A DNA stretch of 64,000 bases from Candidatus Kaiserbacteria bacterium (GTDB taxonomy: Bacteria; Patescibacteriota; Minisyncoccia; Phycocordibacterales; UBA2100): positions 27,559 to 91,558 of the forward strand of contig CAVYCR010000003.1 of the NCBI GenBank assembly GCA_963767115.1. The letters are read 5' to 3'. The translations under genes and the position numbers were made by a program. Of the stretch, positions 7,598-63,926 are shown piece by piece. The notes beneath the pieces are model-generated. The model made no database searches. It was not told where the DNA came from and was given only the letters and a program-made list of their open reading frames with translations. Position 1 is the stretch's first letter. Each line of letters opens with the position of its first letter.

Positions 7598-8209
7598 ATG
7601 TTGCTCGTAAAATCAAAATACAAGATCGCGAAGCGTCTCGGTGCGGGAGTCTTCGAGAAGACCCAGTCGCAAAAGTTCGCACTCTCCGAGGCGCGCTCCA
7701 GCAAGCGTAAACCCCGTGGTCGCGGCGGGTCTGACTACGGTCGCCAGCTCCTGGAGAAACAGAAGGTCCGTTATACCTACGGCCTTTCCGAGCGCCAGCT
7801 TTCGAACTATGCGCACGCCGCCTTCGAGGAGAAGGATCCTTCGGTCGCGCTTAATACTGCCCTTGAGATGCGAGCCGACAACGCTATCTATCGCGCAGGT
7901 CTTGCCTCGAGTCGTCGCGCCGGCCGCCAGATCGTCTCGCACGGCCACATCTTGGTCAACGGCACGCGCATCAAGAGCCCCTCATATGCGGTCAAAATTG
8001 GCGATGTAATTACCGTGCGACAGGGGAGTATTCAGAGTCCGCTTTTTGCTGGCCTCGCTGATCGCAATCCTGAATCCATGCGTGCCGTACCCAAGTGGCT
8101 CGATTTCAATGTCTCTACGCTTCGTGTAGAGGTCAAAGAGATGCCGACCTATGACGGTACCCTCGGCGGGTTGGATTATGCGACGGTATTTGAGTTTTAC
8201 AGTAGATAA
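7598..8209 (+). CDS. rpsD: 30S ribosomal protein S4
   Basis: 203-aa S4-like sequence with a C-terminal S4 RNA-binding domain. Confidence 0.92.
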   Translation: MLLVKSKYKIAKRLGAGVFEKTQSQKFALSEARSSKRKPRGRGGSDYGRQLLEKQKVRYTYGLSERQLSNYAHAAFEEKDPSVALNTALEMRADNAIYRAGLASSRRAGRQIVSHGHILVNGTRIKSPSYAVKIGDVITVRQGSIQSPLFAGLADRNPESMRAVPKWLDFNVSTLRVEVKEMPTYDGTLGGLDYATVFEFYSR

Positions 8210-12180: not shown

Positions 12181-14040
12181 ATGGCAAAAATCATAGGCAT
12201 TGATTTGGGCACGACCAATTCTGCGATAGCAGTCGTCAAAGGCGGCGAGCCGGAAATCTTGGAAAACGCGGAGGGTGCGCGCACGACGCCTTCGATCGTC
12301 GCTACATCGAAGACTGGCGAGCGCCTTGTAGGCCTTCTTGCGAAGCGCCAGGCCGTCACCAATCCAAAGAACACAGTTTACCAGATCAAGCGCTTCATCG
12401 GCCACAACTTCGACGAGCCGCTCGTGCAGAAAGACCGCGGAGCCGTGCCTTTTGAGACACAAAAATCCGCTAACGGAGGCATCGAGGTCAAAATGGACGA
12501 CAAGTGGTATCGCCCCGAAGAGATTTCAGCGATGATCCTCCAGAAGCTCAAGGCAGATGCAGAGGCACGCCTCGGTGAGACCATCACGGAGGCAGTCATC
12601 ACGGTGCCCGCTTACTTCAATGATTCGCAACGCCAAGCCACCAAGGATGCCGGCAAGATCGCAGGCCTCGACGTGAAGCGCATCATCAACGAGCCGACCG
12701 CGGCTGCGCTTGCCTACGGCTTCAACAAGAAGAAGAACGAGAAAATCGTCGTCTTCGACTTCGGCGGCGGCACCTTCGATATCTCCGTGCTCGAAGTGGG
12801 CGACGATGTGATCGAGGTACGTTCGACCGACGGCGACGCGCACCTCGGCGGCAAGGACATCGACCAGAAGATCATGGATTGGATCGCAGAGGAGTTCAAG
12901 AAAGAAAGCGGCATCGACGTGCGCAATGACCCGCTCGGACGCCAGCGTCTCGACGAAGCCGCGGAGAAGGCCAAGATCGAACTCTCAACTGCGCTCGAAA
13001 GCGAGATCAACATCCCATTCATTACCTCGGACAGTTCCGGCCCGCGTCACTTGCTCGTGAAGCTTACACGCGGCAAGCTTGAAGAACTCACCCAGGAATT
13101 CGTCGATCGCGCGATGACCATCACCAAACGTGCGATGGAAGCATCACCCTTCAAGGTCAGTGATATCAACGAAGTCGTGCTTGTCGGAGGCCAGACTCGC
13201 ATGCCCGCTCTGCAGAAAGCAGTCGAGCAATTCTTCTCCCGCAAGCCCAACATGAGCGTCAACCCCGACGAGGTTGTGGCGCTTGGCGCCGCTATACAAG
13301 GCGGTATCTTGCAGGGTGATGTGAAAGACGTGCTCCTACTCGATGTGATCCCGCTTTCACTCGGTATCGAGACCATGGGCGGCGTCGCGACCAAGCTCAT
13401 CGAGCGCAACACGACCATCCCGACCTCGCGCTCGCAAACGTTCTCTACCGCTTCTGACAACCAACCCTCGGTCGAGATCCACGTCGTGCAAGGCGAACGC
13501 CCGATGGCTCCCGACAACAAATCACTTGGCCGTTTCAACCTCGACGGTATTCCGCCGGCGCCGCGCGGTATGCCCCAGGTCGAGGTTACCTTCGATATCG
13601 ACGCCAACGGCATACTTACCGTGAAGGCAAAAGACAAGACGACCAACAAAGAGCAGTCGATACGCATCGAGGGCTCCTCAGGCCTCTCAGATGCCGACAT
13701 CCAGAAAATGCGTGAAGACGCCGAGAAAAACGCAGACATCGACAAGCAAAAACACGAGCTTGTGGAAGCACAAAACGCAGCCGATCAAATTGTGTATGCG
13801 GCGGAGAAGGCACTCAAGGATCATGGCGACAAGGTCGGCGATGATATCAAGAAGGGCGTGCAGGAAAAGATCGATGCGCTCAAGACTGCGCGCAACGGCA
13901 GCGATCTTGCGGTTATCAAGTCAGCTTCTGAGGCACTTTCTACAGAGATGAGCAAAATCGGCGAGACCATGTCTAAGAACCAAGAATCGCCACAAGCATC
14001 GACCGACCAGTCTCCGCCTTCTGACAATAACCAACAATAA
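12181..14040 (+). CDS. dnaK: molecular chaperone DnaK (Hsp70)
   Basis: 619 aa with canonical Hsp70 motifs ([30 protein letters not shown]). Confidence 0.97.
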
Positions 14041-14053
14041 GCACAAGACCATC

Positions 14054-14131
14054 GACCTCGCCCAAAGAAATATTCTTTTGCGACCCGAACGATAGGCGGA
14101 AGCGCAAAAGAATATTTCTTTGGGCGAGGTC
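14054..14131. repeat. foldback element, type 1: perfect 29-bp arms and a 20-nt loop
   Basis: Arms 14054-14082 and 14103-14131 are exact reverse complements. The loop is acccgaacgataggcggaag. Confidence 0.85.
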
Positions 14132-15245: not shown

Positions 15246-15254
15246 CAGGTGACA

Positions 15255-15362
15255 TATCCCAGCTGCGGCTGTTTTGCCGTCTACGCAGGCGCGGCGGCGC
15301 CGAGTCCGAGCGCTGGGCGAGCACGCCCAGACAGCGACGGCAAAACAGCCGCAGCTGGGATA
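15255..15362. repeat. foldback element, type 2: perfect 27-bp arms and a 54-nt core with two internal hairpins
   Basis: Arms 15255-15281 and 15336-15362 are exact reverse complements. The core is shared with 55975..56094. Confidence 0.85.
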
Positions 15363-15387
15363 CGCCAAGGAAAACGTAGGTTATACT

Positions 15388-27250: not shown

Positions 27251-27365
27251 GCGTATCCTCTCGTTACATATTTTTGAAGCCGAGGACCGAACCCGCAGAC
27301 CGCGAAGCGGGCGTGAGGGCGCTTGCGTCCCGCAGGATTCAAAAATATGTAACGAGAGGATACGC
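27251..27365. repeat. foldback element: perfect 28-bp arms and a 59-nt GC-rich core
   Basis: Arms 27251-27278 and 27338-27365 are exact reverse complements, between ftsW and murG. Confidence 0.8.
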
Positions 27366-35696: not shown

Positions 35697-35772
35697 CGAG
35701 AACGGCTGGGGGAATCTTTTTGCGCTTCCGCCTGTCGTTCGGGTCGCAAAAAGATTCCCCCAGCCGTTCTCG
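35697..35772. repeat. foldback element, type 1 (second copy): perfect 28-bp arms and a 20-nt loop
   Basis: Arms 35697-35724 and 35745-35772. The loop cttccgcctgtcgttcgggt is the reverse complement (19/20) of the loop at 14083-14102. Confidence 0.85.
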
Positions 35773-36486: not shown

Positions 36487-36610
36487 GGCAAGCCCGCCTC
36501 GCGGGATTTTGTTTTTTTGGGTCGTTCTTTTTCTGCTGAAAAAGAACTCTGTTTCGCGCCGCCGCGCTGCAAAGACCCCAAAAAACAAAATCCCGCGAGG
36601 CGGGCTTGCC
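36487..36610. terminator. mirror-image twin terminators forming a 37-bp-arm foldback
   Basis: Arm 36487-36523 (gcccgcctcgcggg + attttgttttttt) and its inverted copy 36574-36610 (1 mismatch) lie between convergent rpmA and rplI. The 50-nt centre has its own 9-bp hairpin. Confidence 0.75.
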
Positions 36611-55974: not shown

Positions 55975-56094
55975 GGCGCGCACTGGCGAGGTAGGTATTT
56001 TGCCGGCTACGCAGGCCCGACGGGGCCGAGTCCGAGCGCTGGGCTAGCAAGCCCAGATAGCGACGGCAAAATACCTACCTCGCCAGTGCGCGCC
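55975..56094. repeat. foldback element, type 2 (second copy): 31-bp arms with the conserved core
   Basis: Arms 55975-56005 and 56064-56094 are exact reverse complements. The core aligns with 15271-15345 at 67/74, with two compensatory pair changes. Confidence 0.85.
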
Positions 56095-56102
56095 TAACAA
56101 CC

Positions 56103-56872
56103 TTAATGCGCCGCGTGAGGATCCGTGATGGCGAGCTTGATAAAGAAAAGCGTGAGGAGCGCGAAGACCGCGGCTTGGACGAAACCGACGAATATTTCAA
56201 AGGCCATGAGGGGCGCCGGCACGATGTACGGCGCGAAATAGGTCGCAACCGCGATAAGGACTTCGCCCGCAAAAATGTTGCCGAAGAGACGAAAAGAGAA
56301 TGAGACGAAGCGCGAAAGCTCGGAGACAAATTCGATGATGCCGATCGATGAAGTTGAGCAAGCGGTTGCCGAGTCCCTCTCCGCGGAAGGTGAAGAATTT
56401 GCCCGCGTAGCGTCCAGAAGCCTACGGCGATGATGCCGAAGACTTCTATAGAGATCACCGAGATGATCGCAAGCGTGAGCGTCACATTGAGGTCGGTGTT
56501 GACGCTGCGCAGAAGCGGCGTGAAGGTACCGTCAGCAGCATAGAAGCCGACTGAGCCGATGCCCGGCGTGAATTCGATCAGGTTGGACGTCGCGATGAAG
56601 AGGAAGATCGTGATGAGAAGCGGGAAAGCGCGTCGCGACCATTTTTCGTCCTCGAGCGTCTCCTTGATGAAGTCCTGCATGTAGATCACGAGCGATTCGA
56701 GGAGTGCTTGGAAGCGGCCCGGCACGTACGAGAGCCTGCGTCGCACCACGATCGCTGCTATGATGAGGATAGTGATCGCGACCCAGCTCGTGAGCAGGGT
56801 GTTGGTGATAGGAATCCCCCACAATGTGCCTATCTGCTCGGGCGCGAGCATGACTGAAATTCCGCTTTGCAT
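56103..56872 (-). CDS. atpB: Fo ATP synthase a subunit, interrupted by two +1 frameshifts (near 56417-56420 and 56350-56353)
   Basis: The N-terminal frame is good to ...IEVFGIIAVGF. The next frame reads GRYAGKFFTFRGEGLGNRLLNF. The third frame reads IGIIEFVSELSRFVSFSFRLFGNIFAGEVL...DPHAAH*, stopping at 56103. The Ser/Arg-rich tail of the track ORF (to 56075) is out of frame. Confidence 0.8.
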
Positions 56873-58465: not shown

Positions 58466-58537
58466 GGCCCTATCGTCTAACGGTTAGGACGCCGGCTTCT
58501 CAAGCCGTTAATCGGGGTTCGATTCCCCGTAGGGTCA
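58466..58537 (+). tRNA. tRNA-Glu (anticodon CUC); CCA not encoded
   Basis: Manual cloverleaf. Acceptor GGCCCTA/TAGGGTC (one G-U pair), D-arm GTCTAACGGTTAGGAC, anticodon loop TTCTCAA, T-arm CGGGG-TTCGATT-CCCCG, discriminator A. Confidence 0.85.
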
Positions 58538-58585
58538 CAAAAATAACGAGACCGATGCATGTCATCGGGCGAATCTATTTTTGTA

Positions 58586-58714
58586 GGCCCTACGGGGAAT
58601 CGAAAGACGGAGGCGAGGTCCCCTGCAAGCTTGCAGGGCGCCCAGTCAGGGTCGTGGAATTTTTGGAGCGACGGCGACAAAAATATCCCTGACCGATCCC
58701 CGTAGGGTCACAAA
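58586..58714. repeat. structured ~130-bp segment bounded by an inverted and a direct copy of the tRNA-Glu 3' end
   Basis: 58586-58604 ggccctacggggaatcgaa is inverted relative to the tRNA T-arm/acceptor. 58694-58714 cgatccccgtagggtcacaaa is direct. Perfect 18-bp palindrome ccctgcaagcttgcaggg at 58621-58638. Confidence 0.75.
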
Positions 58715-58718
58715 TTTA

Positions 58719-59075
58719 TTGCACCACATCTTTACATCTTTTGCGGGGTCTGACCCCCATTCGCTCGTTGCGCTGGCCAGAGTGATCGCATTTGTGCTCG
58801 CAATCGGTTTTTCTTATTTTGGCGATATGCACATAGCGGGAGGTCCTATGCGAGCTGCGATACTGGCCGGTATCGTTGCCGTCTTCGCAGTGAGGTACCC
58901 TGACGCATCAAGGTGGCTCATGATCATACTTATATGTTTTGAGCCGGAGCTTCAGGCCACGACGCAAGGTGAGTCCCTGATATTCGTGTTCATTTGTATG
59001 GTACTTCTATTCCCAATGCTCTTCACCCTTTGCCTAAACCAGATCAGATCTGACCGAGGCGAAAGGATCGGATGA
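58719..59075 (+). CDS. hypothetical small membrane protein (TTG start)
   Basis: 118-aa hydrophobic ORF. ATGA overlap with the next ORF suggests translational coupling. Confidence 0.35.
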   Translation: MHHIFTSFAGSDPHSLVALARVIAFVLAIGFSYFGDMHIAGGPMRAAILAGIVAVFAVRYPDASRWLMIILICFEPELQATTQGESLIFVFICMVLLFPMLFTLCLNQIRSDRGERIG

Positions 59076-59407
59076 AGAAACTAGCGAAAGAGCGGCATCG
59101 GCTCGACTTCGTGGCCGTGCCCGCCACACAGACGTCGCACCTTCTCGTAGTGCGGCTGATGCATGATGGCTCGGTCTGCGTGCGGCCATACGGACCTATG
59201 CCATCCAAAAGAGTAACGTCGATGCAGGCGCCTGCACGGATACGCTGGTGGAAGCGGCATCTCCCCTACGCCCGGGGAAGGATTCGCTGGTATGATTACA
59301 TATCGAAATATGAGCGGAAGATATATCTGAAATCAATCGGGATTCGTGCTCCATGGAGACAGCACATCAGAGACATCGATGAATACGCGCAAAGAGCCGC
59401 CCGTTGA
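59072..59407 (+). CDS. hypothetical basic Arg/Trp-rich protein
   Basis: 111 aa. The stop codon lies in the loop of a good terminator. Confidence 0.4.
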   Translation: MKKLAKERHRLDFVAVPATQTSHLLVVRLMHDGSVCVRPYGPMPSKRVTSMQAPARIRWWKRHLPYARGRIRWYDYISKYERKIYLKSIGIRAPWRQHIRDIDEYAQRAAR

Positions 59408-59423
59408 GGGCGGCTTTTCTTTT
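59396..59423 (+). terminator. Rho-independent terminator
   Basis: gccgccc-gttga-gggcggc followed by ttttctttt. Confidence 0.75.
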
Positions 59424-59428
59424 GCCAG

Positions 59429-60721
59429 TTATCGATCCTTCCATTCGCTCTCCTGCCGCACGAGAAGCTCCGGCGCTTTTGAGGGTTCCTCAAGGAGGAG
59501 CGCAACGGTCTTTTCCATCCGCATCGACTGCGAGCCTTTGACGAGGATGATGTCGCCCTCCCTGATCTCTTGCACGAGTTCCACCGCTGCGCGCTCCGCT
59601 TCGCCTACTTCGTATTCGCGCACTTGGACGTCGCTCATTCCCGCATCAAGCGCTGCCTCGCCGATCACGCGTGCACGGAAGCCTATTGTAATGAGCATAT
59701 CGGCACACTGCGCTGCGCGCTCCCCTACGTGGCGGTGCGCATCGGTCGAATATCTTCCGAGCTCAAGCATGTCGCCGAGGATGGCGATCTTGCGGCCGGT
59801 AGTCTCTATCGAAGCGAGTGTATCGAGGGCAGCGAGTACTGCTGCGGGAGAAGAGTTGTACGTGTCGTCGATCACGGTGCTGCTGCGGATGCCCGAAAGC
59901 ACGCGCATGCGGCCGGGCGGCGGCGACCATTGCAGCAAGCCTGCGGAGGCATTCGCGAGATCGATGCCAACGGTATCGGCGACGGCGAGCGCGGCGAGCG
60001 CCGCTGAGACGCGCGGATACCCGAGCGAGCCGCGGATCGTTATCTCCTCAGAAGTCTCGGAGTGATTCGCGCGAAACATCATACCGAGGGGCTTGCCTTC
60101 GCTGTAGAGCACGCGACTCTCGGACGCGAAGAAATCGTCATTTCCTTCGATGCCAAAAGTGACCGAGCGCCCGTGGAAATCACTGCGCAGGTCGCTCATG
60201 CGCGGGTCGTCGCCGTTAACCACGAGCGTGCCGCCGGGCTTCATGTACTCCGCGAGCTGGCGCTTCTCGCGCAGCACCGCTTCCGGCGAATCGAAAAACT
60301 CGACATGCACGGGGATCTCGGGGATCGCGGTGATCACCGCGATGTCGGGCCGCAGCCAGCGCGCGACATTCTTAATGTCATTCGGCCGGTCAGCACCGAC
60401 TTCGAGGACGAGCCATTCGGGATATTCGCTCTTGACGATGATCAGCAAAAAGCCGCTGACGATGTTGGCGATCCATTTGAACGGGTTTTGCCACGCATTC
60501 TCGAGGCCGAGGATCGTGAGCGGCACGCCAAGCTCGCTGTTGAAGCTCTTCTGGCTTTTGCGGATGCGCAGGCTCGACGAGAGCGCCGCGAAGATCGCGT
60601 CCTTGGTCGTCGTCTTGCCGACGCTCCCGGTGACCGCGATGATGCGTGGAGAGTAGCGCGCGAGCACGAGACGCGCTTCCCAGGTCAGTATGGCGACAAT
60701 GATTTTCTTAAAAAATTGCAT
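59429..60721 (-). CDS. murF: UDP-N-acetylmuramoyl-tripeptide--D-alanyl-D-alanine ligase
   Basis: 430 aa. IIAVTGSVGKTTTK (Mur ligase P-loop). Confidence 0.9.
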   Translation of the reverse strand: MQFFKKIIVAILTWEARLVLARYSPRIIAVTGSVGKTTTKDAIFAALSSSLRIRKSQKSFNSELGVPLTILGLENAWQNPFKWIANIVSGFLLIIVKSEYPEWLVLEVGADRPNDIKNVARWLRPDIAVITAIPEIPVHVEFFDSPEAVLREKRQLAEYMKPGGTLVVNGDDPRMSDLRSDFHGRSVTFGIEGNDDFFASESRVLYSEGKPLGMMFRANHSETSEEITIRGSLGYPRVSAALAALAVADTVGIDLANASAGLLQWSPPPGRMRVLSGIRSSTVIDDTYNSSPAAVLAALDTLASIETTGRKIAILGDMLELGRYSTDAHRHVGERAAQCADMLITIGFRARVIGEAALDAGMSDVQVREYEVGEAERAAVELVQEIREGDIILVKGSQSMRMEKTVALLLEEPSKAPELLVRQESEWKDR

Positions 60722-60740
60722 GTAATGAATTGGATTTTCT

Positions 60741-60768
60741 GAAAGCTGAAACCTGACAGCTGAAAGCT
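60741..60768. repeat. four tandem heptads gaaagct gaaacct gacagct gaaagct
   Basis: Spacer between ftsI and murF. Confidence 0.7.
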
Positions 60769-60769
60769 A

Positions 60770-62491
60770 CTATCTATCTGGCGGGATGTTGTAGTAGTTT
60801 ATCAGGAATTGCTCGAGCTGGTAGTATGGGAGATCCCACGTGTAGGCGGAATATTCTTGCCCGATAGGATGATATGCGTAGAGGAAGACGATGAATCGCG
60901 GGCTGCTTGCAGGGAAATAACCGAAGAAAGAGTGGATGTAATACGAGCCTGGGTAGTAGCCGCCGGTTGCAGGGTCTGGGATCTGCGCGGTGCCGGTCTT
61001 CGCGGCGGCAGTGTAATGCTGCATTTTGATCTGACCGTTGAGTTCGTAATCGTCATAGACGGTCTCGAGCATGTTGGTCACGGTCTGCGCGCTTGAAGGC
61101 TTCAAAACCTGCGGACCTTGCGGATATGAGAGCGAACGCGTGATGCCGTTTTCATATTGGATTCCCGTCACCACATGCGGCGTCACCAAAGTACCATTGT
61201 TGGCGAGGAGGTCGATCGCGCGTATCATTTCGATCGGCGTCACCGTGATCCCTTGTCCAAAGGATGCAGTATCGAAGTTGACGGCGGGGCCCGAGCCATC
61301 GTCGAGATTGGTAAGATTGCCGGTCTGCTCGTCGGGCAAATCGATGCCGGTCGAGCTCGCAAGGCCGTAGGATTTCATATACTTGGTAAAGGTCGGATAG
61401 CCGGTCTGTGTCGCGATCCAACTCGCGCCGACGTTGAGCGACTGGTCAAGCACGACAGGTACGGGGATCACACCGCGTGCCTTGAAGTCATAATTGCAGA
61501 CTTTGGCACCGCTCACGGTGATGCATCCCGTGTCGTCATAAGTAGTCGAGGCGCTGATTGCTCCGCTGTCGATGCCCGCAGCCATAGTAAGCGGTTTCAT
61601 GATCGATCCGAGCTCGTAACGACCTGACACGAGAGAGTTCTGATAGACCGACGGATCGCTCGCTGCGCTGTAGTCGTTGGGGTCATAGGTTGGATCCATC
61701 GCCATCGCATAAATCGCACCGGTCTTTGCGTCCATGATGATCCCGCCGTCGAAGGCCGGCGTGTACTGCTTCATGATCTGGTCAAGCGTCTTCTGCAGCT
61801 CCTGCTGCACAGTCGGCTCGATAGAAGTAATGATCGAGCCAGATTGGGCAGAAGGGTTGAGCGTGACGAGATCCTGCACGTTGGCGAAGATCTCCGCGAA
61901 GGGGTTCACGTAGAGACCTGAGTTGGGCTCGACAAGCGTGTCGTTGTATTGCTTCTCGAGCCCGTATTCGCCGACCTTCTCTGACGAAGTACCCTCATAA
62001 CCGACAAAGCCAAGTACCTGAGCAGCAAGATCACCGCCTGGGTATTCGCGCCACTGATCCTGAGCAAGGATCACTCCCGGGATGTTGGATGCCTGCACCT
62101 TGGAGCCGACATCCGCATCGAGATGAATAGCGACTTCTTGATAAGTCCCGCCTGATTGCAGAGCGGCATCGAAGTGAGATTGGTCGATCGGCGTGATCGC
62201 GTCAAGCAATTGGTATGTCTTTTGCGGATCGGTGATCTCGGAAGGATCGATGGCGATGTCGTAGCCGGTCTCAGAGACGGCAGCGGCGACCAACTGCCCC
62301 GTCTTGGTAGTGAAATAAATATTGCCTCGGTTGTCGCCCTGGGTGTCGGGCTCGATGTATTGTCCAAGGGCTTCTTGCTCGTAGGAGCTGCCGTGCACGA
62401 TCTGTACGAAGTACAGCCTGAGCATGATGGTCAGCGCTACAAGTATGAAAACGACGGAGAGGATCCGCGCCCGGAAAACAATCGACTTCAT
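60770..62491 (-). CDS. ftsI: class B penicillin-binding protein (transpeptidase)
   Basis: SxxK (SIMKP), SxN (SLN), KTGTA. N-terminal anchor. Confidence 0.9.
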   Translation of the reverse strand: MKSIVFRARILSVVFILVALTIMLRLYFVQIVHGSSYEQEALGQYIEPDTQGDNRGNIYFTTKTGQLVAAAVSETGYDIAIDPSEITDPQKTYQLLDAITPIDQSHFDAALQSGGTYQEVAIHLDADVGSKVQASNIPGVILAQDQWREYPGGDLAAQVLGFVGYEGTSSEKVGEYGLEKQYNDTLVEPNSGLYVNPFAEIFANVQDLVTLNPSAQSGSIITSIEPTVQQELQKTLDQIMKQYTPAFDGGIIMDAKTGAIYAMAMDPTYDPNDYSAASDPSVYQNSLVSGRYELGSIMKPLTMAAGIDSGAISASTTYDDTGCITVSGAKVCNYDFKARGVIPVPVVLDQSLNVGASWIATQTGYPTFTKYMKSYGLASSTGIDLPDEQTGNLTNLDDGSGPAVNFDTASFGQGITVTPIEMIRAIDLLANNGTLVTPHVVTGIQYENGITRSLSYPQGPQVLKPSSAQTVTNMLETVYDDYELNGQIKMQHYTAAAKTGTAQIPDPATGGYYPGSYYIHSFFGYFPASSPRFIVFLYAYHPIGQEYSAYTWDLPYYQLEQFLINYYNIPPDR

Positions 62492-62520
62492 GTGACACTT
62501 ATTATAACGCGTTTAAGAGC

Positions 62521-62928
62521 CTAGATCGCGGTGCTTGCGATGGTACCTGCATCACTTACCTGATCCGGGCGGTCAACGTAGTTGGTATCTTGTACCGGTA
62601 CCAAGCCAATGCTCGCTCCTGCCTGCGGCGTGATCTCTTGCGTCAGTGCGAAATACTGATTCTCAAGGCCACCGATCGAAGCATCGATCTGATTGATCTG
62701 CGTGAGCGCTTCGCGCCGATACATCACGTTGAGTACTGCAGCGGAGACGAAATAGAGATAGAGGCAGATGAGGACGATGATCGCGAAGTAGAGACCGCGC
62801 AGAATATTGCGTTCGATAGGAAACTCGGTGGCAAGCGCATTACGCGGCTTCGCCGCTACCGCTGCAAAATCGAGCCGTCCTTGGAAGACAGATGCCTGGT
62901 GCTTACTGGTCTTGGTTTGATGGCTCAT
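62521..62928 (-). CDS. ftsL: FtsL-like single-pass division protein
   Basis: 135 aa with one TM helix and a short coiled coil. Positioned between rsmH and ftsI. Confidence 0.55.
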   Translation of the reverse strand: MSHQTKTSKHQASVFQGRLDFAAVAAKPRNALATEFPIERNILRGLYFAIIVLICLYLYFVSAAVLNVMYRREALTQINQIDASIGGLENQYFALTQEITPQAGASIGLVPVQDTNYVDRPDQVSDAGTIASTAI

Positions 62929-62934
62929 AGGTAG

Positions 62935-63873
62935 TTATATTTTTTCTACGATTCGAAGCTTGGCGCTGCGTGCACGGGGGTTTTCTTTTAATTCCGAAGC
63001 TGAAGGCTTGAGCGGAGAGTGCGTGATCCGCCGGATGATTCCGATACGTTCCTGTTCGAGAAAGAGTTCTTTGACGGCGCGATCCTCGATGCTGTGGAAG
63101 GTAATGACTGCGACGCGCCCATTGCTCGCGAGAAGATCGAGCGCATCAGTGATCCCCTGCTTGAGCGCACCGAGCTCGTCGTTGACTGCGATACGAAGTG
63201 CTTGAAATGTCTTCGTCGCGGGATGAATGCGGCCGTGGCGGTATACTGCTGGCACTGACGCTTTGATGACTTCGGCAAGATCAGATGCGATCTCAAAGCG
63301 CTTGGTGGAACGACGCTCCACGATCGCTTTGGCGATCCGCCGTGAGTATCGCTCATCGCCCCAGCCGTAGATCACATCCGCGATAGATTCTTCCTGCCAC
63401 GTGTTGACGATCTTTGCGGCAGTGAGACTGTTTACATCCAACTCTTTGGCGTAGGTCATCAGCAGTGGTTCATCTGACAAGAATGAGAATCCTCTGCCGG
63501 AGGCGAGCTGGTATCCGCTCCAACCAAGGTCGAAAAGTGCCTTATCGATCTTCTCGATGCCATGATCATTCAGCGCGCGCTTGATGTCTCTAAAGTTGTC
63601 TTCTATACAAAATTTTTGCGCCTGTGCGTCTTTCAAAAGTATCTGTGCCCTTTCGATCGCGTCATGATCGAGGTCAAAGCCGATGAACGTGCCGCTTGCG
63701 TCGAGTTTCTCAGCGATGGCACGAGCATGGCCCGCGCCGCCGAGTGTCGCGTCGACGATAATATCATCAGGCCGTATCTCGAGGCCTTCTATTGCTTCGT
63801 GTAAAAGAACCGAGCGGTGCACTATGGTTGATGGCACCGGGTCGCTGGAGGAAAGTGCTCGTCGCGTGCGCAT
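62935..63873 (-). CDS. rsmH: 16S rRNA (cytosine1402-N4)-methyltransferase
   Basis: HRSVLLHEAIEGL..., DATLGGAGH, FDLGWSGYQL. Start at ATG 63873. Confidence 0.9.
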   Translation of the reverse strand: MRTRRALSSSDPVPSTIVHRSVLLHEAIEGLEIRPDDIIVDATLGGAGHARAIAEKLDASGTFIGFDLDHDAIERAQILLKDAQAQKFCIEDNFRDIKRALNDHGIEKIDKALFDLGWSGYQLASGRGFSFLSDEPLLMTYAKELDVNSLTAAKIVNTWQEESIADVIYGWGDERYSRRIAKAIVERRSTKRFEIASDLAEVIKASVPAVYRHGRIHPATKTFQALRIAVNDELGALKQGITDALDLLASNGRVAVITFHSIEDRAVKELFLEQERIGIIRRITHSPLKPSASELKENPRARSAKLRIVEKI

Positions 63874-63926
63874 GACGTATACAAATCCTCCAACGACCAG
63901 GTACAACCAAACAGTAACCAGTGGGA

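Follow-up and report, generated by a model that had tools for sequence, protein, structure and literature searches.

A folded element that is apparently undescribed is widespread behind the tRNA genes of Patescibacteria, where it can bracket accessory genes; literature searches found no description of it. The copy analyzed here lies in a window of 64,000 nt (the whole stretch of DNA under analysis) from a genome that its MurF homologues place in the Patescibacteria, as Paceibacteria/Kaiserbacteria-like, and it follows the gene for tRNA-Glu(CUC). The reading that we favour, with less than firm conviction, is that the segment 58539-58714 may well be a small cargo-less, non-autonomous insertion cassette at the 3′ end of this gene, with a folded stem that mimics its target and a recombinase encoded elsewhere. 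The features of the region are as follows, X denoting the tail of the tRNA.

58466-58537, plus strand: tRNA-Glu, anticodon CUC (ARAGORN and Rfam RF00005, 61.4 bits; ARAGORN/Rfam end 58537/8)
58518-58541, plus strand: X copy 1, the tRNA tail (exact repeated block 58524-58541; repeat search and BLAST self-matches)
58539-58584, plus strand: spacer hairpin, with A-run 58539-58543, stem CCGATG (58552-58557) / CATCGG (58563-58568) and T-run 58578-58582 (sequence and fold)
58586-58604, plus strand: reverse complement of X, GGCCCTACGGGGAATCGAA, the 5′ strand of closing helix P1 (inverted-repeat search and folds)
58600-58696, plus strand: Type A three-way-junction core (covariance model R1, from 16 other loci; 31.8 bits, E = 2.6e-6), with closing helix P1b, TCGA../..CGA, on the plus strand
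58606-58608 / 58645-58647, plus strand: GAC / GTC base of P2 of the core, which encloses the palindrome 58621-58638
58650-58694, plus strand: P3 of the core, with an AT-rich apical hairpin
58694-58714, plus strand: X copy 2, CGAT-CCCCGTAGGGTCACAAA, the 3′ strand of P1 (exact block 58697-58714)

The discriminator A of the tRNA is 58537 and CAAAA comes next, so that CCA is not encoded. Copy 1 comprises the T-loop, the 3′ strands of the T-stem and acceptor stem, the discriminator and CAAA. Within the two direct copies is an exact repeat of 18 nt, TCCCCGTAGGGTCACAAA, at 58524-58541 and 58697-58714 (BLAST E = 2.6e-4 against the 64-kb window), beside which the tRNA is intact. An earlier note on this DNA had described three copies of the tRNA-Glu tail, direct, inverted and direct, around a strongly folded segment, and all three are present at 58518-58541, 58586-58604 and 58694-58714. 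The last matches at 20 of 21 positions with one T deleted, as read directly in the sequence. The inverted copy is real and somewhat longer than noted, with arms of 26 nt (58518-58543 / 58579-58604) that are 85% complementary and contain an exact part of 17 nt (58518-58534 / 58588-58604). The 18-bp palindrome at 58621-58638 is perfect, and the stem of GTCAGGG (58645-58651) with CCCTGAC (58687-58693) appears in the minimum-energy fold, both as the note had them.

In the folds the reverse complement of X can pair with copy 2, leaving one bulged A and one G•T pair, or alternatively with copy 1. The helix P1 formed in the window is a 12-bp mimic of an acceptor plus T-stem, ending at the discriminator. 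The tRNA and element together (265 nt, 58466-58730) have a predicted folding energy of −125.4 kcal/mol, compared with −84.5 ± 5.4 for shuffled sequences (z = −7.6, 0/200). A Logan assembly from an independent sequencing run (ERR11630394, locus L001) carries 58516-63889 at 100% identity, and thus the inverted copy and the second direct copy are not artefacts of the source-contig assembly. With the BLAST E-value and the fold z-score, this identity rules out chance or assembly artefact.

The small hairpin with a T-run between the tRNA and the inverted copy had been taken as the likely tRNA terminator. It is terminator-like yet not canonical, because the T-run begins 9 nt beyond the stem at 58552-58568, and a terminator scan flagged the minus-strand reading only. 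Compared by eye, its inner hairpin is similar to those of two related units (L114 and L101). A scan found no promoter-like site, and the ORFs around the unit have no Pfam matches. Against Rfam 15 the tRNA alone passes the gathering score, with nothing meaningful at E ≤ 10 in 58530-58730, and ARAGORN finds no tmRNA in the window. The unit has no D or anticodon arm, which sets aside a tmRNA, a second tRNA or an intron-containing tRNA. A hammerhead-like CTGATGA...GAA in one unit (L143) was dropped by eye, as other units have GTGAT or ATGAT there. Two other loci have fragments that look like ordinary tRNA pieces, distinct from the unit: at the unrelated locus L201 a seemingly second copy of tRNA-Glu is interrupted by insertions in the anticodon-loop and T-loop regions, and downstream of tRNA-Ser in L104 lies a stray tRNA-Ser 3′ half of a different variant.

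How widespread is this arrangement? An unbiased set of loci was drawn from 80 species-representative genomes (GTDB) chosen by MurF alone, in which tRNA-Glu(CUC) often adjoins murF. A second, 13/13 copy of the locus's own tRNA-Glu tail lies 137-187 nt downstream in 10 of about 45 of these murF-chosen loci. The match within a genome is kept though the tail varies by lineage, the T-stem reading CCCCG, CCCGG or CCCTG and the acceptor TAGGG or TGGGG. A metagenome scan with a degenerate pattern gave at least 120 loci, and among the matches listed the three free positions of the pattern agree between copies in 118 of 127. Across these loci (at least 120) the structured unit is 140-190 nt long and the layout is common to them: the tRNA, a hairpin (mostly A-run, stem and T-run), a 5′ strand complementary to the tail, one to three conserved hairpins and then the tail copy. 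The same core types lie behind tRNA-Ser(CGA), Val(GAC), Phe(GAA) and Leu(UAG), with both strands of the stem matching the tail of their own tRNA; these four tRNAs played no role in locus selection. Loci with tRNA-Glu(UUC), retrieved by the Glu-tail pattern itself, carry the unit as well. The lineages concerned span Paceibacteria to Moranbacteria, and many of the loci come from groundwater of the Hainich wells. A layout that recurs at 120 or more loci, where it follows five or more tRNA species and its stem fits the one that it follows, does away with the idea that the window holds a unique scar.

Downstream of tRNA-Glu in four loci (L010, L012, L033 and L048) there are arrays of modules (TTTGTGAAGGCRCAGGCATAATTTTT...GCCGAGCCGGGGTCG...GTGAC) in which the conserved hairpins occur with no tail copy. 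These may be decayed or alternative forms of the family.

The Type A core is a three-way junction in which a closing helix (GAAUCG/CGAUUC and outward) is joined by P2 and P3. A base pair in P2 alternates among A-U, C-G, G-C and U-A, while a G•U pair in P3 is invariant. The alignment of 16 sequences has 85.6% of its cells paired, where shuffles have 69.1 ± 1.2, and there are 73 double-change cells, against 22.5 ± 3.7, a number that none of 500 shuffles reaches. The covariation score of the real structure is 0.408, and sliding the 3′ partners as a control gives at most 0.13. The strand that is sense to the tRNA folds better in 117 of 118 distinct units among the listed loci, by 7.6 kcal/mol on average. 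For 117 related units the predictions give a pairing probability of 0.6-0.78 between the tail copy on the 3′ side and a partner far to the 5′ side. Selection acts on the fold, which is specific to one strand. A minus-strand RNA antisense to the tRNA tail is ruled out by the same strand test.

These properties bear on the rival account that survives best, in which the unit encodes a structured non-coding RNA, produced together with the tRNA or directly behind it, and the closing helix copies the acceptor/T-stem stack of the neighbour. RNase P, RNase Z and the CCA-adding enzyme would trim and complete such an RNA as they do a tRNA, and its function, perhaps the binding of a protein, would reside in the three-way junction. 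We regard this as possible, on the doubtful side. The strong compensatory covariation, the invariant G•U pair and the near-universal preference for the tRNA-sense strand all speak for it, as does the tRNA-like P1 of the window with its end at the discriminator. The core is moreover retained where the X arms are lost, scoring 37.6 bits in L010 and 27.5 bits in L012 with the covariance model. Set against this, the hairpin loops are predominantly GNA-type triloops and tandem G•A pairs, not the GNRA or UNCG types usual in RNA; the discriminator and the C after it are base paired in many units; a terminator-like hairpin stands between the tRNA and nearly every unit, and between the units of arrays; and neither a promoter-like site nor, even at the permissive threshold given above, a matching Rfam family was found for the unit.

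A different set of observations argues for insertion. Among 126 listed loci the block of identity has its left limit 0-7 nt inside the T-loop and its right limit mostly 0-4 nt past the discriminator. Williams in 2002 is said to have given just such an extent as that expected for tRNA att sites of the T-loop class. Units also accumulate: one locus (L173) has three in tandem, of different core types and each with X at its end, and two more (L128 and L151) have tandem units. At three others (L159, L155 and L019) respectively 1.7, 3.7 and 5 kb of co-oriented accessory genes lie between one X and a further unit plus X. By Pfam, the cargo across these three includes a SAM methyltransferase, KilA-N, HTH regulators, restriction-modification genes (methylases with nuclease) and an AAA_15/OLD-like ATPase. 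The RNA account would explain the arrays and the cargo as rearrangements of secondary origin around the genes of a multi-copy RNA family. The 5-kb restriction-modification/OLD-like island of L019, between two identical units, is bounded by a perfect inverted repeat of 245 bp (7954-8198 / 12741-12985), possibly an assembly artefact; part of it (CCTTTGCTCGAACYYATTTCGA) recurs downstream of tRNA-Glu in L008 and L009.

The sequence following each copy of the tail is also informative. Among the listed loci CCA is encoded after copy 2 only in 15, after both copies in 15 and after copy 1 only in none, so that 30 of 118 loci have it after copy 2, far above chance. Terminator-like hairpins follow copy 2 in 47 of 113 loci, compared with 18 of 103 in a coding background, and are enriched after copy 1 as well; in 68 of 113 related loci the spacer hairpin is a canonical one of A-run, stem and T-run. 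The asymmetry of CCA and the hairpins after copy 2 are as expected if the original trailer follows copy 2 and the intervening DNA was inserted, and suggest that the native tRNA trailer has been displaced to that position. The RNA account can also claim the CCA after copy 2. The 3-4 nt past the tRNA end are identical between the copies within a genome and differ between genomes, being CAAA in the window and TGA in L114, and this concerted change in the sequences points to a probable homogenization of the repeat at the level of DNA. Here the RNA account fares worse, since the processing enzymes need neither a stem matched to the neighbouring tRNA nor identity in the 3-4 nt past its end, and yet those nucleotides change together. 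The earlier suggestion that the duplicated tRNA end is a scar of the integrase type thus holds in part: block limits, arrays, cargo and CCA asymmetry all give it the behaviour of an insertion mark, and it is neither unique nor the recent scar of a lost island.

On the favoured reading, a cassette would consist of a spacer hairpin, replaced by several genes in other genomes, followed by a folded site in which the complement and the copy of the tRNA tail close the conserved three-way junction. Its entry would be a site-specific recombination event somewhere between the T-loop and the end of the tRNA, which would regenerate an intact tRNA with copy 1 and displace the original tail as copy 2. The folded stem, which reproduces the target duplex, could then serve as a single-stranded recombination substrate, by analogy with attC and with the attP hairpin of CTX phage, and the recombinase would come from elsewhere in the genome or from a helper element.

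Several observations weigh against this cassette. As the earlier note had stated for an integrase, no recombinase gene was detected, whether by a search of the window for tyrosine-recombinase motifs, by a narrow Xer-type box-II regex (one that would miss λ-Int-like or divergent enzymes) over about 1.7 Mb of related loci, or in a Pfam scan of cargo ORFs. Among the relatives compared, none offers an empty site whose flanks match, and neither a free nor a circular form came to light. The viral contigs scanned lack the unit; what they carry are tRNA-Glu genes of phages and two tRNA halves of a classical, attP-like kind. Units within one genome are not recent copies of each other, and in many Type A units the 5′ strand is complementary to the T-loop part of X only.

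Conservation in place is a further point against the cassette, being, like the invariant G•U pair of P3, what would be expected of a functional RNA gene. In one relative (L114, 59% MurF identity) the orthologous unit is 76% identical in nucleotides over 123 nt, lacks the same T in copy 2 and has the order and orientation of the window: tRNA-Glu, unit and convergent murF. In another pair (L103 and L181) the flanks are 81% identical and the units about 80%, the latter figure by eye. This conservation is deep, and the RNA account draws support from it. The distribution among relatives is patchy, a point in favour of the cassette. L002 (69% MurF identity) has the tRNA and no unit; its flanks are not alignable with the window, and the region downstream of its tRNA is no more similar to the window unit than shuffled sequence. 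The closest relatives (L261 and L262, 81% and 70% MurF identity) have no tRNA beside murF. The window copy is old and inherited, not a fresh insertion.

The surroundings of murF have changed in other ways. Directly past copy 2 of the window, at 58719-59407, are two small co-oriented ORFs with no Pfam match, one membrane-like (75/118 aa) and the other of 111 aa, with a terminator hairpin of their own at about 59396-59425. L114 is without this 690-bp segment, its murF beginning 12 nt past copy 2, and therefore an insertion or deletion has occurred right at the repeat boundary. The upstream neighbour of the tRNA anchor is murF elsewhere and a P-loop kinase-like ORF in the window. At the murF loci (L002-L081) tRNA-Glu(CUC) is in tandem within tens of bases in many and convergent at 0.7-4 kb in others. 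Rearrangement has a hot spot downstream of murF.

The core is not confined to tRNA genes. The earlier note had proposed a search for other copies of the interior; in the window BLAST finds none, and nhmmer, using sequence alone, gives just 14 matches in 1.7 Mb. The structure-aware model does tie the interior to the other foldbacks of the window, a link that the note had also drawn. The covariance model R1, built without any window sequence, finds the tRNA-linked unit and then the cores of these four foldbacks.

36487-36610: foldback with core 36518-36578, minus strand (rank 2, 19.3 bits, E = 0.007)
15250-15367: foldback with core 15277-15341, plus strand (rank 3, 13.8 bits)
55975-56094: foldback with core 56000-70, plus strand (rank 4, 11.2 bits)
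27251-27365: foldback with core 27284-27331, plus strand (rank 7, 9.1 bits, E = 4.1)

Taken singly these scores are weak (19.3-9.1 bits), and what supports the link is that the matches coincide with inverted repeats found independently. The four foldbacks have unique arms of 31-40 nt that are 94-100% complementary, and inner hairpins that fit the three-way-junction model. All are intergenic and just past gene ends, at rplI, dnaJ, inside the atp operon and at an unnamed ORF. Beside them there is neither a flanking direct repeat nor a third copy of an arm, and exact-match scans of the arms as spacer-like virus matches gave nothing. The model also finds long, unique-armed copies in other genomes. 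Thus the inner module is dispersed and its closing arms can vary freely; arms that match the tRNA tail, and with them a flanking direct repeat, are peculiar to the copies linked to a tRNA. A core that occurs with unrelated long arms and no flanking repeat itself needs no tRNA target, and this too counts against the cassette. Four of the five core copies in the window (the four foldbacks and the tRNA-linked unit) are co-oriented with the upstream gene, in keeping with the RNA account. The element accounts for part of this genome's unusual long foldbacks.

Two other features of the window may be recorded here. The perfect foldbacks 14054-14131 and 35697-35772 have arms of 28-29 nt and a common, different loop of 20 nt, ACCCGAACGAYAGGCGGAAG, in opposite orientations and flanked each time by CTTTTGCG/CGCAAAAG; one of the two lies between dnaK and dnaJ. 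They look like a second small hairpin family. The gene atpB (ATP synthase subunit a, 56075-56872, minus strand) is split by a frameshift, the N-terminal part running to about ...GFWTLRG and the conserved C-terminus (...FSFRLFGNIFAGEVLIAV...DPHAAH*) lying in another frame, which could be a sequencing error, a pseudogene or recoding.

The abundance of foldbacks lends some support to another mechanism, in which X, its complement and X arose as a zig-zag by replication template switching at hairpins (‘palindrome growth’), with no recombinase involved. The stem of the terminator would have been extended into the tRNA tail first, and then the stem of the neighbouring conserved hairpin module. The genome is rich in long, unique-armed foldbacks with arms of 28-40 bp and 94-100% complementarity, consistent with active palindrome correction; the arm formed by copy 1 and its complement runs without a break into the stem that the A-run and T-run form in the spacer hairpin; and the other foldbacks have no flanking direct repeat. 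We consider this mechanism improbable nonetheless. The left limit of the repeat falls within the T-loop in all loci examined, instead of at variable depth. At the 15 loci where CCA is present at copy 2 and absent at copy 1, copy 2 cannot derive from copy 1. Arrays of different core types each ending in X, and cargo on the scale of kilobases, are left unexplained.

A remnant of a large prophage or genomic island with its own tyrosine integrase, deleted to about 155 bp between attL and attR, would account for the direct repeat of the tRNA 3′ end, and two viral contigs (L224 and L244) do have a phage-type attP overlapping tRNA-Glu(CUC), but this highly improbable reading is largely refuted by recurrence and the conserved fold, as independent deletions would not leave the same covarying unit at 120 or more loci and five tRNA species, and neither Pfam on nearby ORFs nor the motif search of the window revealed a remnant of an integrase.

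Known mobile systems offer partial parallels to the favoured cassette. Integron gene cassettes have folded attC sites acted on by IntI (PMC2727003). Like these, each unit closes on its 3′ side with an imperfect hairpin site, which has a conserved and strand-specific structure, a stem of varying sequence and a variable, branched terminal structure; arrays form at one anchor, accessory ORFs share one orientation and cargo is absent from some units. In contrast to integrons, the anchor is the end of a tRNA gene instead of attI, no intI adjoins it, and reading the sequences reveals in the unit no R″/R′ boxes (RYYYAAC/GTTRRRY), the stem showing the tRNA tail. That stem reproduces the sequence of its own anchor, and the inner hairpins are conserved in sequence.

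In the IMEX phage CTX-φ a folded single-stranded attP mimics the duplex target and the host XerCD acts upon it. There, as here, the target sequence is present in inverted copies whose stem equals the duplex target, and the element encodes no recombinase; once integrated, it has the hairpin beside one junction and a restored target at the other. The unit differs in that its target is a tRNA 3′ end and not dif, and in that it carries 150-200 bp or cargo of defence type, not the genome of a filamentous phage.

Integrative elements that target tRNA genes have non-autonomous derivatives (CIMEs and mobilizable islands), and their integrase-less members are presumed to be mobilized in trans. The unit shares with these the direct repeat from T-loop to tRNA end, the regeneration of an intact tRNA and tandem accretion. 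It is distinguished from them by a far smaller size, a folded and covarying junction, an inverted core copy and the presence of the same types at several tRNAs, and no integrase gene was detected in or beside it.

REP and REPIN sequences and MITEs such as Correia and ERIC are short intergenic hairpin repeats in many copies, with conserved ends. The unit is likewise short, intergenic, hairpin-forming, multi-copy and non-coding, with members just after gene ends. The earlier note had read the inverted and direct copies as terminal inverted repeats of the transposase type, and this reading fails: from one family copy to the next it is the arms that change and the inner hairpins that are kept, whereas a MITE would show the reverse. 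BLAST finds no near-identical copies in the window, and the 18-nt flanking repeat of the unit is the tRNA tail. By these comparisons the unit would appear most like attC cassettes or the hairpin att sites of IMEX/CTX type, with a resemblance to integrase-less derivatives of tRNA islands, and it would fall outside each of these classes as defined.

The cassette and RNA accounts could both hold, since an RNA might be encoded by a mobile cassette. A bolder extension, which we think unlikely on balance, is that Patescibacteria possess an integron-like cassette platform at tRNA 3′ ends, its stem ‘programmed’ by the tail of the tRNA that it occupies, which would use a host or helper recombinase to stockpile defence and accessory genes. 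Targeting in such a platform would be set by the element's own nucleic acid.

The genomes of Patescibacteria are about 1 Mb and have almost no spare non-coding DNA, yet they keep a folded element of 150-200 nt behind many tRNA genes. If this is a recombination site, it would be a new insertion platform for accessory and defence genes, with restriction-modification systems, OLD-like ATPases and methyltransferases between its copies, and would choose its integration sites by mimicking the target. If it is an RNA, it would constitute a widespread new class that borrows the ends of tRNAs. Annotators gain a recognizable feature where they might otherwise have seen a prophage scar or an assembly artefact.
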